Positions 6,644 to 12,987 are shown, counted from the first letter of the stretch. The stretch: DNA of 64,000 nucleotides from a virus (IMGVR_UViG_3300013902_000009:1-64000); one strand, 5' to 3'. Program-made: numbers and translations. The notes: a model not told the origin generated them from the sequence alone.

Positions 6644-7681
6644 TTAAACTTTGTTAAGATAATCAATTATGTCGTTTGGCTCTGTCTCTCTAACACCAAT
6701 CGGAATCTTAGGATTCTCTTTGAGATAGTAATCCAGTTCTTTAACGATATTTCTCCAGTTTTTGCAAAGATACTCACCGTTCTTTCCGTATGCAAGGTTT
6801 GTTATAGATTTTGTGTCTTTGTATTCCCAAGCGAGAGGGTTCTTACTATTTCTATTGACTACAATAAAGATATAGTTGTTAATCTTAAAGTCTTTGAAAT
6901 AGTTATCTTTGACTACATTTTGACGTAATAACTCATAGTATAATTGTGCCTGAATCATATAACGCCATTTGATAAAACTAAGCGGGAACTCATACTCAAG
7001 ATGCGATGATGTTTTCAAGTCGCAAGGAGTTATAGTTTTTTCCTTGTGATTGATTAAACATAAATCCATCATACATCTCAGTTTGACACCTTCATATTCG
7101 CCCTTAAATTTTAGTTGATATTGCCTCTCGATATCATCTATTCCGTCCCGCCTAAAATAAAACTCGGTAGACGGTGATGTTTTTAACGCCTCGACTGAAG
7201 CTATGCAGTCGGCGTAATCCTGCGATGATACAACCTCTTTACTGCCGCAGCAAACCAAAGCATCAAAATAGTCAGAGCAATCCCTACGTATGTTGCGTAT
7301 CCTTGTTGATTCATAAGACTTACCGGCATAATAACCGCATTCTGCCCCTATCCTAGCTATATCGAAATCATCTATATCTGATAGACTTAACGCATCAGGA
7401 AATTCATCGTTAAGACGTTTCGTGACAAGTATAAGTGAGTCACTTAATTTTGGGAAATCAACCACAGCGAATCTTTCGTTGAAAGCATTCTCACCGTCAG
7501 TAAGTAACGTGTCTACCATGCTGCCGAAAGTAAGCGATGGTGTGCTTATCCTGTCAAAAAGTGTAGGCAATCCTTTAAATCCCTCCCTGTCGAATCTAGC
7601 TATTGTTGAATACGAATACGCCTCATCCTTGCGGTATGTAGGCTCGTCAACTTTCCAGCTTATCTCGTAAAGACTTTTCAT
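6644..7681 (-). CDS. PD-(D/E)XK exonuclease (RecE/ExoVIII-like)
   Basis: SYSTI...FGSMVD...ERQ...MMDL...DLKT...YMIQAQLY. Confidence 0.8.
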   Translation of the reverse strand: MKSLYEISWKVDEPTYRKDEAYSYSTIARFDREGFKGLPTLFDRISTPSLTFGSMVDTLLTDGENAFNERFAVVDFPKLSDSLILVTKRLNDEFPDALSLSDIDDFDIARIGAECGYYAGKSYESTRIRNIRRDCSDYFDALVCCGSKEVVSSQDYADCIASVEALKTSPSTEFYFRRDGIDDIERQYQLKFKGEYEGVKLRCMMDLCLINHKEKTITPCDLKTSSHLEYEFPLSFIKWRYMIQAQLYYELLRQNVVKDNYFKDFKINNYIFIVVNRNSKNPLAWEYKDTKSITNLAYGKNGEYLCKNWRNIVKELDYYLKENPKIPIGVRETEPNDIIDYLNKV

Positions 7682-8123
7682 TTGTTTGTTGAGTTATTTT
7701 GTTAAACCATTCCATTGTTTTCCTTAATCCTTTAAGCGTGTGAATCTCAGCATAATACCAATGTATCGCCAAATCTATGTTTTTGAGAAACATTTTACGC
7801 TTATATGGGTGTAAATCGTTAGAGTATCCCTTACATTCAAGTACAAGAAAGTCATCACCTATTCTGACTACAAAATCAGGAGTATATTCCCAACGTCTTA
7901 TTTTTGTAGGGCTTCCGTTTTTTGTGACTTGTGAGATTCCGTCAATACACCACGGTTTTGACGGAGTGAAACTATCCAGAAGGGTTGATGTCAAAGGTTC
8001 ATACTCGGTATTATAACCAAGTTTAACCAACTCTTTAAATACTCTTGCTTCTAACTTTGATTTAAATTCTATACCGTTTGTGATATTTTCTGTTGCTCCA
8101 ATTATTTTCCTATTTTCCATCAT
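7647..8123 (-). CDS. PD-(D/E)XK endonuclease (T7 endonuclease I/DUF1064-like resolvase)
   Basis: FKSKLE...YEP...YTPDF...LECKG. Confidence 0.8.
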   Translation of the reverse strand: MMENRKIIGATENITNGIEFKSKLEARVFKELVKLGYNTEYEPLTSTLLDSFTPSKPWCIDGISQVTKNGSPTKIRRWEYTPDFVVRIGDDFLVLECKGYSNDLHPYKRKMFLKNIDLAIHWYYAEIHTLKGLRKTMEWFNKITQQTNEKSLRDKLES

Positions 8124-8608
8124 TTTATATAGTCAGTTACTGAACCAATAATAATTTCATTATAAAAAATACGCGTTGCATTCAAGAAGCTTTTTATAAT
8201 ACATTTAAGTAAATCTTTATTTTTGTATATGTTACTTATAACTATTTTTATGTTTCCAGTATTTTCATCTTTAAGAGAGAGGCAATATATCTTTCCTGTT
8301 TTAGAATATACACAGCCATATTCACAAAATATGTCACCATCGTCACATTCAAAATGTCCTATAAGATTTTGATAACACTTGTCTATAATCATATCAGATA
8401 TAACTTTTTGAGACATAGGTGACACATTATATGTATTATTTCTGGCACAATATAAAGACATAGGTAAAATCAAATTCTTATCTCCATTTATAAAACAATA
8501 TCCATCTTCGGCTTTTATAACGCAAAACCGTATAGATTGCATTGTCTCATATTTTAGAGACGAATGTTTTCCCTTTAAAGCACAGATTACACGTTCGCTT
8601 TTTGTCAT
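8120..8608 (-). CDS. hypothetical protein, coupled to the E1 gene
   Basis: 162-aa ORF with 4-nt overlaps on both sides; AT-rich like the E1/JAB/E2 genes. Confidence 0.7.
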   Translation of the reverse strand: MTKSERVICALKGKHSSLKYETMQSIRFCVIKAEDGYCFINGDKNLILPMSLYCARNNTYNVSPMSQKVISDMIIDKCYQNLIGHFECDDGDIFCEYGCVYSKTGKIYCLSLKDENTGNIKIVISNIYKNKDLLKCIIKSFLNATRIFYNEIIIGSVTDYIK

Positions 8609-9480
8609 CTTAATTCCTCCAATGACATTTTTATTGAATTATATTCTGTAAAGAAAGGAAGATTATACTCTACCAAATTAACATTGTTGTTCACATAGTT
8701 TACTACAAGATTGCATATTATAGAACCTATCATCATAGCCATATATGTTGTTTGTTTAAACGAGCATATTGTGCTGTCAGCATATCTATCCTCAAACATA
8801 TAGTCAGCCTCATATCTCCTTCTAGATTCAATATCGTCAAACCTAAAACAAATTACTTGTAATGTATCCGCAGATAATCTACCATCTATGTATAAACCTT
8901 GAAATCCAGACGCTATAGCGCTATCATATACAGATTTTCTAGAAGACATTGAATCTACTCCAGAAATAACTATATCAAAGTTTTTTTGTATTGATGTATC
9001 GGAGTAAAATCGTAAAGTTGATGAGCTTATTTCAGTATTAGGAGAGAAAAGTCTTACATTATTAGATAATTCAAGAGTTTTATTACCACCTATATTCATA
9101 GGGCCAAAAAACTGTCCTGCCATATTATATACAGAAACAGTATCATTGTCAATTATATGTATTCTTTTTAGATTAAGTCTTGATAACGCAAGTACGGTCC
9201 AACTTGATATTCCGCCAGCACCTATAATTTCAACGTTTATTTTCGAACATGCTTTAAACCATGGCGCTCCACTGTATCTTTGCGTAGTCATAGCAGATAT
9301 ACCATAGTCTGATAATATCTTTATATCCACATTATTTGTATGTTCATCTTGTATAGAATCATTATTATTTTCTGTATTATCACTATTAATTATAAATGTA
9401 TTTCCAGAGGAAGTGTTATCGTTTGTTCCGAGGATTTCGTTTATATCCTCATTTGTTATATTAACACTCATAATATTCAA
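8605..9480 (-). CDS. ThiF/E1-like ubiquitin-activating adenylyltransferase
   Basis: IIGAGGISSW, IIDNDTVSVYNMAGQFF, GGNKT, SGVDSMSSR, YIDGR; candidate catalytic Cys in TICSFKQT. Confidence 0.9.
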   Translation of the reverse strand: MNIMSVNITNEDINEILGTNDNTSSGNTFIINSDNTENNNDSIQDEHTNNVDIKILSDYGISAMTTQRYSGAPWFKACSKINVEIIGAGGISSWTVLALSRLNLKRIHIIDNDTVSVYNMAGQFFGPMNIGGNKTLELSNNVRLFSPNTEISSSTLRFYSDTSIQKNFDIVISGVDSMSSRKSVYDSAIASGFQGLYIDGRLSADTLQVICFRFDDIESRRRYEADYMFEDRYADSTICSFKQTTYMAMMIGSIICNLVVNYVNNNVNLVEYNLPFFTEYNSIKMSLEELR

Positions 9481-10441
9481 GATTGTTATTTATGCATTCT
9501 AAACACATGTCTACATATACAGAACTATCAAGTTTGGAAAGCATGTCATAAAGTGCTTTAAGTTCTTCTATAGACAAATTCTCAATCTGCGAAATGATAA
9601 AATTATATATAGTTTCATCATCATCGTTTGTAATCTTATCAAGGCTGCTGTCAAATTTTAACTTTTTATCGCATGGAACCCAACCAAGAGAGGCTGTTGC
9701 CAATCTATTATATATTTGAGTAATCTTACCATTATCCACAATATTGGATTTATCCTTAAACAATGTTGGGTAATCGTTTCTATGTGGTTTTTTGTCATCA
9801 AAATACAAGTGCTCTTTAGATATTGGCATTGCACTGTTTCCGGCAAGCTCAATAAGTACAGACTCTTCGCTGTTTTGCGGTATGATAACATCAAGATTTA
9901 TCTTCTCTATAAACTCGTCGATAACAACGTTGTCTCGTGTCTCGGTTACATCGGAATTACCAAATGTCTTATAAGTCGAGGTGATTTTGCTTGACTTAAT
10001 CTTTACCTTTCTTGTTATGGCTGCTACATACTTACCTTTGTTGTTTACAACTAAGGAGAGGAAATGATTCCTTGTCGAGCCTTCCTTTATTAGCGTTTGT
10101 GTATCTTCTCCGCTGTAAAAAGCATCCATTCGATTATGACTGTGTAGTAAACCAACTTGTTGATTTATAAGCATTTGACTACAAGCATAACTTATTATTC
10201 TTTCATCTTCAACAAATTCTGTATGCCCTCTTGTGCCAATATCAAGCACAAGGAAGTCAACCACCTCAAATATGATGTCTTTGTTTTCAAATGAACCTTT
10301 GTAGTTGTAATATAATACTCCGCTCCACTCGTTGTCAGGCAGTTTTGAGCACCACCACCTTATTTTTGATTCAACCTTTTCCGATATAATAAGTTTGAAT
10401 CTGATATTGGATTCTTTTATTTTATAATTATTATTGTTCAT
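9461..10441 (-). CDS. JAB/MPN+ metallo-isopeptidase
   Basis: EWSG...GLLHSHNRMDAFYSGED matches the JAMM motif E-xn-HSH-x7-S-xx-D. Confidence 0.9.
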   Translation of the reverse strand: MNNNNYKIKESNIRFKLIISEKVESKIRWWCSKLPDNEWSGVLYYNYKGSFENKDIIFEVVDFLVLDIGTRGHTEFVEDERIISYACSQMLINQQVGLLHSHNRMDAFYSGEDTQTLIKEGSTRNHFLSLVVNNKGKYVAAITRKVKIKSSKITSTYKTFGNSDVTETRDNVVIDEFIEKINLDVIIPQNSEESVLIELAGNSAMPISKEHLYFDDKKPHRNDYPTLFKDKSNIVDNGKITQIYNRLATASLGWVPCDKKLKFDSSLDKITNDDDETIYNFIISQIENLSIEELKALYDMLSKLDSSVYVDMCLECINNNLEYYEC

Positions 10442-10442
10442 T

Positions 10443-11363
10443 TTATTTATTATTAATAAGATAGTATCTATAAAGTAATATTATTAAGCCTCGTGCTACT
10501 TCTGGCCTTATAATATACGCTTCTTCATTTGACTCAACACCTATCTTTTTGAACCTAACATTATTACCCTTAAAATATATTAACGTTCTCATACCGTCAC
10601 GAAGTATAGGGTTATACTGTGAATCAATGTATAATCTTCCATCACTTATAGCACCAACTATAAGATAGGTATCAATATCGCAACTATTATAATCTTTTTT
10701 GTGACGTAAATAATCAAGCGTTAGTTCTGTAAGTTTACATATAAGCGGTATTGTGGTACCGAAATTAATACTATATTTATCAATATATAAAGGCTTAATA
10801 GGGTTTATAGACATTATATAATTAAACAGATTTAATATATAATTAGGTGGAATATCGTTTACTTGTATTTGAGGTATAATATATTCGATTGAATACCTAC
10901 TAACAACTTCTTTCATTCTTATATATGGACCTCCTGATATTGATTCAGTTCTAATATATCTATCAAGCTCTACAAGGAATAATCCGAATATATCAGGATT
11001 ATAACTTGATGCAAGTGTAGCCATAGTTGACTTTATTGGTCCAGTACCAAGACATGGTACTTTATAACTCATCGTATTATCACATTGACGAGGGAGGTGA
11101 GAAAAAACATAACCACATCTCATCTCGTTAGCTGTAAGTGTCGAACGTGTCATATCAAACCCGACAAGGCTTGCGTTTTCAGTAAATGTGATTCTGACAT
11201 ATACATCATATATAGTATGTTTTTCATCTCTTTCATTTGACACTTCAACCTTATCCCAATATATTACAAGCCTTGGTCTACTAGTAAGCGTATCTTGTAA
11301 GTCAACGTTATCTGCTCCAAACATATTATCGGCAGCAGATTTTATGTCATCAAAACAATTCAT
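10443..11363 (-). CDS. prokaryotic E2-like conjugating enzyme
   Basis: FSHLP...VPCLGTGP resembles the E2 His...Cys-Leu-Gly active site; lies between the Ubl and JAB genes. Confidence 0.65.
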   Translation of the reverse strand: MNCFDDIKSAADNMFGADNVDLQDTLTSRPRLVIYWDKVEVSNERDEKHTIYDVYVRITFTENASLVGFDMTRSTLTANEMRCGYVFSHLPRQCDNTMSYKVPCLGTGPIKSTMATLASSYNPDIFGLFLVELDRYIRTESISGGPYIRMKEVVSRYSIEYIIPQIQVNDIPPNYILNLFNYIMSINPIKPLYIDKYSINFGTTIPLICKLTELTLDYLRHKKDYNSCDIDTYLIVGAISDGRLYIDSQYNPILRDGMRTLIYFKGNNVRFKKIGVESNEEAYIIRPEVARGLIILLYRYYLINNK

Positions 11364-11370
11364 ATCAAAT

Positions 11371-11399
11371 AAAAAAAGCCATATCCAAAGATATGGCTT
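11371..11399 (-). terminator. intrinsic terminator between the Ubl and E2 genes
   Basis: AAGCCATAT/ATATGGCTT stem followed by U7 on the minus strand. Confidence 0.75.
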
Positions 11400-11404
11400 G
11401 AAGT

Positions 11405-11977
11405 CTACCTGTCAAGAATGTCACTTATTTCCGACGTTGAGAGATTCCTTGCAATGTTTTTGCTTTTGCATACCGTGTAGCCCATTTTTGTAAGTGCGGC
11501 TATAACCTGCTTTAGAAGATATTCATTTGAGAATTCCTCAGCCCGCCTTTTGGTATCAGACAACTCCTTGGATTTTCTGTTGGCGATAAAACTCTTGAGG
11601 TTTTCCGTGGACACGCTGGTATACATGAGACCGTACGCGTCCTTTACCTCCTTGAAGAGTTTGTGGCTCTTTATGTAGTCGAAGCACTCCTGACGCTCCT
11701 TACTGATAGCTCCCGACGAAATCTTCTTGTTTGCGTTAGAGAGCTGAAAGACCAAGTCGTTGGTTACACTTCCCTTGAAAGGCATGTTTGTCGGGAGTAT
11801 TGAGTCATCTGACTTATACTCAGCTTTGCTAACACCCTCATAGAAGGCCTGATTTGTATAGTCTATTCCTGCTTCATCGAGAAGTCTTTTAACGTCGGCA
11901 AGTGTTGTCACTTCAACATCGTTAAAGTCTTTTCTCGATTGTGTGTTTGTAGATACTACAATTACGTTTCTTTTCAT
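11405..11977 (-). CDS. ubiquitin-like (beta-grasp) precursor with a C-terminal extension
   Basis: Residues 1-89 show a beta-beta-alpha-beta pattern (VIVVS..., TTLADVKRLL, LVFQL) ending KKISSG, followed by a 101-aa helical tail; first gene of the E2/JAB/E1 cluster. Confidence 0.7.
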   Translation of the reverse strand: MKRNVIVVSTNTQSRKDFNDVEVTTLADVKRLLDEAGIDYTNQAFYEGVSKAEYKSDDSILPTNMPFKGSVTNDLVFQLSNANKKISSGAISKERQECFDYIKSHKLFKEVKDAYGLMYTSVSTENLKSFIANRKSKELSDTKRRAEEFSNEYLLKQVIAALTKMGYTVCKSKNIARNLSTSEISDILDR

Positions 11978-12987
11978 GATTGCTTTTGTTTGATTGGTTT
12001 AACTAACAGTTCCTTTATTACCCTCCTGAACGTTTCGGAGCCTTTATTCTTGAATAAATCCGAAGGGTCCTTCGACTGGTATTCCGACGGAATCTCAACC
12101 ATTTCAAGGTCGAACATACCGCATAGTCTTGACGCGTATATATGTCCGTGGTTTTCCTCCTTGTCGAAATCGTTGTCGAAGAATATGATTATCCTTTTGA
12201 ATCTTCGCTTCAACTGGTTGATTACCTTCTCCTTCGGTATATAACCCTCTCCCTGAAGGCTTACAGACGGTATCCCGGTATTCTCCCAAAGGCACAACGC
12301 ATCCTTTCTTGAAGACGTTATAAACAAGGTGTCACCCTCTTCTGGCAGTCGGGACCACAAGTCCCAAACCGAGGAGTCGTGTTTGCTCAACCATTTGAGT
12401 CTCTGTGACTCAGGCTGGTATACTTTGAGTGATACCTTATTATCCTTGCGCTCTACATAAACATAGGCGAGTCTGTCGGCGGGTATAACCTTTGTGTGAT
12501 TGTCTCTTGTTATAAGGATATGGCTTATAGGGTACACATCGCCAAACTCAAGCCACTCTCTGGTTATTCCGTATGAGTTCCAATACTCCATATCATAATC
12601 AAACCATTGGCGTGTTCTGACCTGCAATACAGAGTCGGTTCTGCGTATTACTCTCTTATGAGTCTTGTTAAGTCTGATTGAATCTGGATTAACCTTATCC
12701 AAATCTCTCCATATCTTTGAGATAACCTCGTTGAAGCTACGGTTCCACATCTTACCCAAAAGGTCGAATATACTACCGTGCTCGCCCGTGCCGAAGTCTT
12801 TGTAGAATACCTTTATGCCGTTCGGTGAGAAGATGCTTACCGAAGCGTTTCTATCCTGTCTGACAGGGCTGTTAATAAGCGTTGGTAAGACGTCTATATT
12901 AAGATAGAACCTCATTATATCAAACTCTGAGATTCTTTTTAATAACTCGTCTATTCCAACGCTTATATTGCAACGCCTGAAAGCCAT
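11974..12987 (-). CDS. dnaG: DnaG-like primase (crAss type)
   Basis: SPVRQD...YKDFG N-terminal domain; TOPRIM ITSSRKDA...FFDND...KDPSD. Confidence 0.85.
   Translation of the reverse strand: MAFRRCNISVGIDELLKRISEFDIMRFYLNIDVLPTLINSPVRQDRNASVSIFSPNGIKVFYKDFGTGEHGSIFDLLGKMWNRSFNEVISKIWRDLDKVNPDSIRLNKTHKRVIRRTDSVLQVRTRQWFDYDMEYWNSYGITREWLEFGDVYPISHILITRDNHTKVIPADRLAYVYVERKDNKVSLKVYQPESQRLKWLSKHDSSVWDLWSRLPEEGDTLFITSSRKDALCLWENTGIPSVSLQGEGYIPKEKVINQLKRRFKRIIIFFDNDFDKEENHGHIYASRLCGMFDLEMVEIPSEYQSKDPSDLFKNKGSETFRRVIKELLVKPIKQKQS

Follow-up and report, generated by a model that had tools for sequence, protein, structure and literature searches.

Gene content of the locus

We analysed a stretch of 64,000 nucleotides from a virus (IMGVR_UViG_3300013902_000009:1-64000, hereafter the window), taken from a 99.8 kb record of a crAss-like gut phage that is rated 98% complete. 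The subject of this study is a cassette of five co-oriented, coupled genes (8120-11977, minus strand) that immediately follows the primase gene and that we propose encodes a conjugation pathway for a ubiquitin-like protein (Ubl). A first-pass annotation had placed five coupled genes there, with the Ubl start overlapping the primase stop by 4 nt; coordinates, strand and junction overlaps were all recovered from the DNA. The features are as follows, with the basis of each assignment in brackets.

11974-12987, minus strand: primase, DnaG-type (phrog_12622, 1e-51)
11405-11977, minus strand: Ubl precursor, 190 residues (open reading frame, ORF; beta-grasp fold)
11369-11399, minus strand: terminator-like hairpin with a 10-bp stem and a 4-nt loop, then a T run (consensus match only)
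10443-11363, minus strand: E2-like protein, 306 residues (ORF; fold-level assignment)
9461-10441, minus strand: JAB/JAMM metallopeptidase, 326 residues (ORF; motif and weak family matches)
8605-9480, minus strand: minimal E1-like adenylyltransferase of the ThiF/MoeB/UBA5 type, 291 residues (Pfam ThiF)
8120-8608, minus strand: fifth gene, 162 residues (ORF without library match)

The primase gene ends and the Ubl gene begins within the same four letters, ATGA, and an ATGA overlap is found again between the E1 gene and the fifth gene, as well as between the fifth gene and the next one. The E2-like stop and the JAB start are 1 base apart, the JAB and E1 genes overlap, and the gap from the Ubl gene to the E2-like gene contains the hairpin. 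A nucleotide search of the cassette against a phage collection returned no match.

The first gene encodes a ubiquitin-like domain followed by a conserved tail

Neither Pfam nor NCBIfam gave a family match for the first protein, and no PDB entry was matched by sequence. Its AlphaFold2 model, built with 22 homologues (predicted local distance difference test, pLDDT, 82), has a beta-beta-alpha-beta...beta arrangement at residues 2-81, a disordered segment at 85-90, and helices thereafter. With Foldseek, this model retrieved SUMO1, ubiquitin variants, TtuB and the bacterial Ubl of 8tyx (probability 1.0, E of about 1e-3). In an exhaustive VIA search the top match was TINCR, with a Z of 8.7 and 2.1 Å over 72 residues, and ubiquitin, FAT10, UBX, DIX and MoaD were found at a Z of about 7. 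A Z of at least 5 was reached by 217 chains, and the top 50 listed were all ubiquitin-like beta-grasp domains. The beta-grasp fold that had been suggested for this gene is therefore borne out by both searches. Three elements are distinguished within the gene.

11711-11977, minus strand: ubiquitin-like beta-grasp domain, residues 1-89, ending in KKISSG (AlphaFold2 model and fold searches)
11711-11713, minus strand: Gly89 codon, predicted processing and activation site (invariance and flexible linker)
11405-11710, minus strand: conserved helical tail, residues 90-190, with the acidic end S-x-x-E-I-x-D-I/M-L/F (alignments and AlphaFold2 model)

Residues K84, S88 and G89 do not vary among 22 close and 8 distant homologues, the latter including crAss001 gp79, DAC15 and the Flavobacterium phage Fpv1. 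Over the 76 viral loci of IMG/VR that carry the E2-like gene, the Ubl motif reads K-x-[IV]-x-[SN]-G, and the Gly is kept in every printed sequence that reaches the position (one printout stopped short of it). The tail after this Gly is conserved too. It contains a helical segment with R95, I102, T120 and L127, varies in length from about 100 to 157 residues among homologues, and ends in an acidic motif, S/T-x-x-E/D-I/L-D/E-x-M/I-F/L. We take this end to resemble the acidic C-terminal tips of single-strand-binding proteins, which dock replisome partners, and the tail, once released, may be a replisome-binding protein. Sub-threshold Pfam DNAG_N matches were seen on the tail in three homologues; matches of the tail to DUF7226, DUF6240 and DNAG_N below the Pfam cut-off were not used.

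In phage cr106_1 (NC_055871.1; L090:1077-2280) the Ubl ORF stops two codons past Ser-Gly (...KKIKSGKF*), an HNH endonuclease ORF comes next, and the tail follows as a separate ORF of 131 residues. Rfam detected no group I intron at this break. Whether the gene is split or carries an intron, the break falls at Gly89, which marks this residue as a domain boundary.

The E1 is a single ThiF domain with an invariant crossover-loop cysteine

The fourth protein matched Pfam ThiF above the cut-off (3e-19), as a single match covering residues 77-290 of 291. It is thus one ThiF domain of about 215 residues, preceded by a variable N-terminal extension. Profile comparison with solved structures placed UBA5 first (1.6e-13), then MccB (7e-13) and UBA3, the NEDD8 E1 subunit (2e-11); ThiF (2e-8), MoeB (4e-6), Cap2 (about 1e-5) and BubCD (1.2e-5) ranked lower. 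In NCBIfam the best model was ThiS adenylyltransferase, far below its cut-off, and the second was PRTRC_ThiF (9e-13). The positions of interest are these.

9471, minus strand: possible alternative start ATG
9211-9222, minus strand: GAGG, residues 87-90
8953-8955, minus strand: D176
8764-8766, minus strand: crossover-loop Cys239 (TICSF)

The phage family was aligned with the MoeB and ThiF sequences of Escherichia coli K-12. Kept in the phage proteins are GxGG, DxD, N119, Q123, K134 (MoeB K86), D176 (MoeB D130) and R181 (MoeB R135), while both CxxC zinc motifs are missing. Cys239 is invariant in the phage E1s and aligns with MoeB C187 and ThiF C184, in keeping with the candidate catalytic Cys that had been pointed out in TICSF.

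Within the E1 coding sequence, at 9124-9152 on the minus strand, lies a 12/12 match to the sigma-70 consensus (TTGACA, 17 nt, TATAAT). Bacteroidota promoters deviate from this TTGACA/TATAAT consensus, and the match may be due to chance.

The JAMM peptidase motif is intact

The third protein consists of a JAMM domain, at about residues 1-150, and a C-terminal domain without assigned function. The catalytic motif could be read directly from the DNA.

Within 9461-10441, minus strand: JAMM domain, about residues 1-150, then the C-terminal domain
10328-10330, minus strand: JAMM E38
10103-10144, minus strand: H100-S-H102-x7-S110-x2-D113 (HSHNRMDAFYSGED, pattern H-x-H-x7-S-x2-D)

The motif is complete, as had been noticed in the first reading of the locus, and is conserved in distant homologues. 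Family matches were found with Pfam Prok-JAB (2e-3, below the cut-off) and PADLOC JAB (9e-5), and profile matches with archaeal JAMM1 (5lda, 6e-3), CSN5 and Rpn11-like chains, all weak but concordant.

At or just past the HSHN part of the motif, the gene is interrupted by about 1.1-1.2 kb in several relatives, L004, L002 (Fpv1), L054, L056, L068 and L070. The insert is probably an intron; it carries a homing-endonuclease ORF in two of them, of the LAGLIDADG type in L004 (7235-9624) and, in Fpv1 (L002:5851-8143), one encoded on the other strand. Rfam recognised no group I intron at the insertions searched (L004, L002 and L054).

The second protein probably has a UBC-type fold

The E2-like protein has two domains, and the residues singled out below were read from the DNA.

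Within 10443-11363, minus strand: UBC/UEV/RWD-like N-terminal domain, about residues 1-160 (AlphaFold2 and VIA)
Within 10443-11363, minus strand: C-terminal domain, about residues 165-306, no fold class assigned
11097-11102, minus strand: S88-H89, invariant
11052-11054, minus strand: C104, start of C-LGTGP, invariant

The AlphaFold2 model (pLDDT 84) opens with an N-terminal helix, followed by a four-strand meander; after a long loop come helices, which is the order of these elements in UBC domains. The VIA results were dominated by a single class, comprising Ubc9 (Z 5.7), a UEV-like BRISC subunit (5.6), the Tsg101 UEV (5.5), RWD (5.4), Ube2K (5.3), Ubc13 (5.2), Cap2 (4.6) and BubB (4.3). Foldseek against the PDB gave nothing significant, with weak RWD and E2 rows only, and in BFVD the structure matches were uncharacterised crAss-like homologues only. 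As the Z values are middling, we grade the UBC-type fold of this protein as probable and not proven.

The family itself is large: a profile search of 1.84 billion representatives gathered 3185 clusters at 50% identity. PHROGs places the protein in a family of unknown function, the Atlas gave a single weak lead to Prok-E2_D, and a search for shorter proteins found only a fragment of 54 residues. Thirteen positions are invariant in all 148 aligned relatives, namely N43, E44, Y85, S88, H89, C104, G106, G108, P109, E140, S141, G144 and P146. The loop that follows the fourth strand holds both His89 and, 15 residues further on, Cys104 in a C-x-G-x-G-P context, an arrangement that we take to recall the HPN...Cys of E2 enzymes. 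Most family members read H-S-H...C, with H87 replaced by Phe in the window phage. The identification of this gene as an E2 in the first-pass annotation thus holds for the UBC/UEV/RWD fold class and for a cysteine kept in 148 of 148 relatives; it falls short in that the best Z is 5.7 and that no sequence link to the E2 families was found.

The fifth gene is conserved in position, hardly in sequence

The fifth slot is always occupied, by proteins with 11-36% identity to that of the window and a single invariant Gly. The gene is thus conserved in place and hardly in sequence, and is fast-evolving. The window's protein had no match in Pfam, PHROGs, NCBIfam, PADLOC, a PDB profile search or the Atlas, and eight homologues showed neither a Pfam match at E up to 1 nor a conserved Ser-His pair.

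The cassette is maintained as a unit in related phages

The Ubl gene lies immediately upstream of the E2-like gene in 76/76 IMG/VR loci, and the JAB and then the E1 genes follow downstream, on the same strand, in every locus long enough. In crAss001, primase gp80 is followed by gp79, gp78, gp77 ('metalloprotease domain'), gp76 ('thiamine biosynthesis protein, ThiF') and gp75, and an identical order was found in DAC15, cr85_1 and four metagenome contigs. Fpv1 keeps the cassette, with a uracil-DNA glycosylase gene inserted after the primase. The classified Crassvirales records examined all belong to Steigviridae, subfamily Asinivirinae; Fpv1 is a Fipvunavirus. We conclude that this gene arrangement is not due to chance, since the same order recurs across independent viral loci. 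The synteny in crAss001, DAC15, Fpv1 and the IMG/VR loci also agrees with the earlier statement that the cassette is owned by the phage and sits in its replication module, where, as that statement supposed, it may be expressed while the phage replicates.

Downstream of the cassette, on the minus strand, come a gene resembling DUF1064/Holliday-junction resolvases (7647-8123) and a PD-(D/E)XK exonuclease gene (6644-7681). A uracil-DNA glycosylase gene separates the cassette from these neighbours in crAss001 and most relatives examined, and is absent from that place in the window. Two IMG/VR contigs have overlapping split ORFs, one in the E1 gene (L011:4523-5411) and one in the E2-like gene (L082:5551-6956), where either a frameshift or an assembly error is possible.

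No sulfur-transfer partner was found in the phage genome

E1-like enzymes and beta-grasp proteins also work together in sulfur transfer, and the cassette could be read in that way: a carrier of the ThiS/MoaD/TtuB/CysO type would be trimmed by the JAB peptidase, adenylated by the E1 and turned into a thiocarboxylate, which would donate sulfur to a nucleic-acid or cofactor modification during phage DNA replication, with the Cys/His 'E2-like' protein as sulfur relay or final transferase. We searched the whole 99.8-kb, 98%-complete phage record, and found no ThiG, MoaE, rhodanese, class V aminotransferase (cysteine desulfurase) or PP-loop ATP_bind_3, in a search for which control genomes gave matches. 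The lack of a sulfur-transfer gene in the cassette, remarked upon earlier, thus extends to this record as a whole. Thiamine or molybdopterin biosynthesis was rejected as a reading, and the public label 'thiamine biosynthesis protein' of the E1 is probably misleading. This and 'metalloprotease domain' are the names under which two of the five cassette genes appear in public records.

Proposed mechanism

We consider it reasonably likely that the cassette is a virus-encoded Ubl conjugation pathway operating via thioesters. The analysis shows the folds (the UBC-type one as probable), the motifs, the invariant residues, the gene order and the absence of sulfur-transfer partners; every chemical step, the place where the precursor is cut, and what is tagged and to what end are inferred from these.

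The precursor would be made as a Ubl domain, a flexible KKISSG linker and a helical tail, and the terminator-like hairpin downstream of its gene may mean that more of it is produced than of the enzymes. The JAMM peptidase would then cleave after Gly89, yielding a Ubl with a C-terminal Gly and, as second product, the tail. The small MoeB/UBA5-type E1 would adenylate Gly89 and load it onto the crossover-loop Cys239. The UBC-like protein would next receive the Ubl, on its Cys104. In a last step, the C-terminal domain of the E2-like protein, the fifth protein, or both, would choose the lysine to be modified, either in a host protein or in a component of the phage's replication machinery. Removal of the tag may be a further task of the JAMM peptidase.

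A conjugation cascade fits best because the Ubl, the Cys-bearing E1, the JAMM peptidase and the UBC-like Cys/His protein are always found together, and because the genome of the window phage showed no sulfur partner. It is also favoured by the nearest solved relatives of the E1, UBA5, MccB and UBA3, which activate proteins or peptides. Precursor cleavage after Gly89 is supported by the precedent of BubCD acting on BubAB and by the break at the same Gly in cr106_1. The intact and conserved JAMM motif counts in favour as well, and homing-endonuclease genes have inserted precisely at it in several relatives.

Several points weigh against this proposal. No E3 and no target were identified for the cassette; 'complete', as the first-pass annotation put it, is otherwise a reasonable description of the gene set. 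The best Z of the E2-like model, 5.7, lies in the middling range by VIA's own warning, and the protein had no match in Pfam (where 24 family members were searched too), NCBIfam, PADLOC or the PDB, by sequence or by profile. The conservation of the tail after Gly89 is also compatible with a two-domain protein that is never processed. Finally, the phage E1 family has a Gly at the position of MoeB Arg73 (N-L-Q-R-Q motif), and the adenylation chemistry may therefore differ.

Alternative explanations

The alternative that best withstands these data concerns the E2-like protein. Only the Ubl, JAB and E1 proteins would take part in the enzymatic reactions, and the UBC-like protein would be a non-catalytic UEV/RWD adaptor or a replisome scaffold; its Cys and His would be structural or metal-binding, and the Ubl would be passed on directly from the E1 or act non-covalently. 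This is suggested by the fact that non-catalytic UEV (Tsg101, Vps37, Mms2) and RWD domains match the model at the same Z as true E2s, by the lack of a sequence link to E2 families, and by the H-S-H...C motif, which could bind metal in most members. The last argument is weakened by the window phage itself, where H87 is a Phe, meaning that an H-x-H metal site is not general. Moreover, the invariance of Cys104 and His89 in all the aligned relatives, their C-x-G-x-G-P context and a spacing similar to that of the E2 HPN...Cys speak against an adaptor, and the gene always stands between the Ubl and JAB genes. We judge this explanation rather unlikely.

The sulfur-carrier explanation described above is distinctly unlikely. 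It draws on the E1 belonging to the ThiF/MoeB family, with ThiS adenylyltransferase as its best (far below cut-off) NCBIfam model, on MoaD and TtuB being among the structural matches of the Ubl, on the placement of the cassette among DNA-metabolism genes, and on the occurrence of JAB, carrier and E1 genes in sulfur-assimilation clusters (Iyer et al. 2006, PMC1779556). Host enzymes could provide the sulfur; rhodanese, cysteine desulfurase, PP-loop thiolase, ThiG and MoaE are all absent from the phage genome. The E1 has no rhodanese domain either, its UBA5, MccB and UBA3 profile matches are well above those to ThiF and MoeB, and the fold class of the second protein, UBC/RWD, is that of no known sulfurtransferase.

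There is only an outside chance that the cassette serves in counter-defence by interference and not by tagging, its JAB peptidase stripping Ubl or CD-NTase conjugates formed by host Bil-type or type II CBASS systems while the Ubl, E1 and E2 compete with the host machinery or serve it as decoys. Operons of E1, E2 and JAB genes defend bacteria against phages (PMC11601596), the control genome of Bacteroides thetaiotaomicron, the recorded host of the cassette-bearing DAC15, contains a Pfam Prok-E2_D match, and the fast-evolving fifth gene would suit an arms race, yet a deconjugase alone would suffice for such a task, whereas four genes are retained together with intact catalytic residues across 76 loci, and Flavobacterium phages retain them as well. 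The conjugation pathway itself is compatible with a role of this kind, if the tagged target is a defence protein.

Significance

Taken one step further, the proposal is that Steigviridae crAss-like phages and related Flavobacterium phages run their own E1-E2 Ubl tagging during DNA replication, covalently modifying a host, replisome or defence protein, in a manner distinct from Bil and Bub; we hold the chances of this to be even. If true, it would describe a phage-owned conjugation system whose minimal UBA5/MoeB-type E1 carries a crossover-loop Cys, whose E2 has two domains, and whose Ubl is set free from a partner domain that is itself conserved. Ubl conjugation in prokaryotes is currently viewed as a weapon of the host against phages (Bil, Bub, CBASS Cap2/Cap3). 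Here, a similar kit is owned by the virus and fixed beside the primase gene in a large and abundant group of human-gut phages. Knowing the target would tell whether tagging serves the control of the phage's own replication or the disarming of the host, and the evolutionary history of ubiquitin systems would gain a branch from the minimal Cys-based E1 and from the new families of E2 and Ubl. A test is feasible, as cultured members with known hosts exist: crAss001 grows on Bacteroides intestinalis, DAC15 infects B. thetaiotaomicron, and the Fpv phages infect Flavobacterium psychrophilum. The interplay between phage and host is testable as well, because hosts may carry a Ubl-conjugation operon of their own, as Prok-E2_D in B. 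thetaiotaomicron suggests.

In a literature search that left many journals outside its reach, we found no paper describing this cassette, nor a relevant link of crAss-like phages or Crassvirales with ThiF, ubiquitin or thiamine. The broad analysis of crAss-like genomes by Yutin et al. 2021 does not mention ThiF, JAB or ubiquitin.

Comparison with known systems

The closest parallel in module order is type I Bub (BubAB, BubCD and BubE, formerly 6E.1), described by Ye et al. 2024 (PMC11601596). Both follow the order Ubl, E2, JAB, E1 and fifth protein, with a single-domain, homodimer-type E1 and no E3. BubAB, in which Ubl and E2 are fused, is cleaved by the JAB domain of BubCD immediately behind a conserved Gly (PMC11601596), as we predict for the phage precursor. 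The two systems differ in their gene fusions, Ubl with E2 and JAB with E1 in Bub, whereas the window, like the related loci examined, has a separate ORF for each protein, with its own start and stop. Bub relies on oxyester chemistry, with Tyr370 in an E1 devoid of catalytic Cys and Ser333/His335 in the E2 (PMC11601596), where the phage has invariant cysteines, Cys239 in the E1 and Cys104 in the E2-like protein; the invariant S88-H89 of the latter could also supply a Ser nucleophile. BubE is a DUF6527 Ser-His protease, a family that the phage fifth protein, with its one invariant Gly, does not match. The phage E1 profile is nearer to UBA5 (1.6e-13) than to BubCD (1.2e-5). Lastly, Bub is bacterial and tied to defence regulators, and the phage cassette is viral and lies in a replication module. 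Membership of type I Bub was rejected, given the absence of fusions, the Cys-bearing E1 and E2-like proteins, and the absence of a DUF6527 partner.

Bil is a bacterial anti-phage defence made of BilA (Ubl), BilB (E2), BilC (JAB) and BilD (E1) (PMC11601596). Like the phage cassette, it has these four functions in separate genes, is expected to use Cys chemistry, and dispenses with an E3, the E2 being proposed to pick the target. The Ubl of 8tyx, a Ubl-deubiquitinase complex, is one of the many structural matches of the phage Ubl. The Bil E1 is built of an inactive and an active adenylation domain and a separate Cys domain (PMC11601596), while that of the phage is a single ThiF domain with its Cys in the crossover loop. 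Gene order is unlike that of Bil, the phage Ubl has a conserved tail, and the owner is the phage and not the host. No sequence similarity to Bil was seen for the Ubl and the E2-like protein, which had no match to Bil families in NCBIfam or PADLOC, libraries that may lack Bil models. As its E1 is devoid of the three-part architecture, the cassette was not assigned to Bil.

The first-pass annotation had also likened the locus to PRTRC, a cassette of conjugative elements with ParB-related and ThiF-related genes. The two have in common their carriage by mobile elements beside DNA replication or partition genes, and a ThiF-family E1. The phage E1 scored 48.1 bits with PRTRC_ThiF, against a cut-off of 144.75, the models of PRTRC proteins A-F did not match any of the other four cassette proteins at E up to 1, and the cassette has no ParB-like gene. 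With an E1 so far below the cut-off and four unmatched proteins, membership of PRTRC could not be upheld.

Phages lambda and T1 encode TAPI, which combines a Ubl domain with a C-terminal domain, and TAPK, which combines JAB with NlpC/P60, and this JAB neighbour has been predicted to cut TAPI at its conserved Gly (Iyer et al. 2006, PMC1779556). The resemblance lies in a phage-encoded Ubl domain ending in a conserved Gly and followed by a second small domain, next to a JAB gene. This pair has no E1 and no E2, belongs to the tail module and not to the replication module, and has no detected sequence relationship with the cassette.

At the more general level of the E1-E2-JAB-Ubl operons (classes 6a-6e, Iyer et al. 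2006), three of the defining features are found in the phage: a Ubl with its Gly, the ATP/Mg site of a ThiF-type E1 (with Gly in place of MoeB Arg73), and the JAMM motif. For the UBC-fold E2 with a catalytic residue after a conserved His, the phage has a candidate, with the fold class at a best Z of 5.7, invariant His89 and Cys104, and no sequence match to the Prok-E2 families of Pfam. Since the comparisons with Bil, Bub and PRTRC fail, we place the cassette among the general prokaryotic E1-E2-JAB-Ubl operons.

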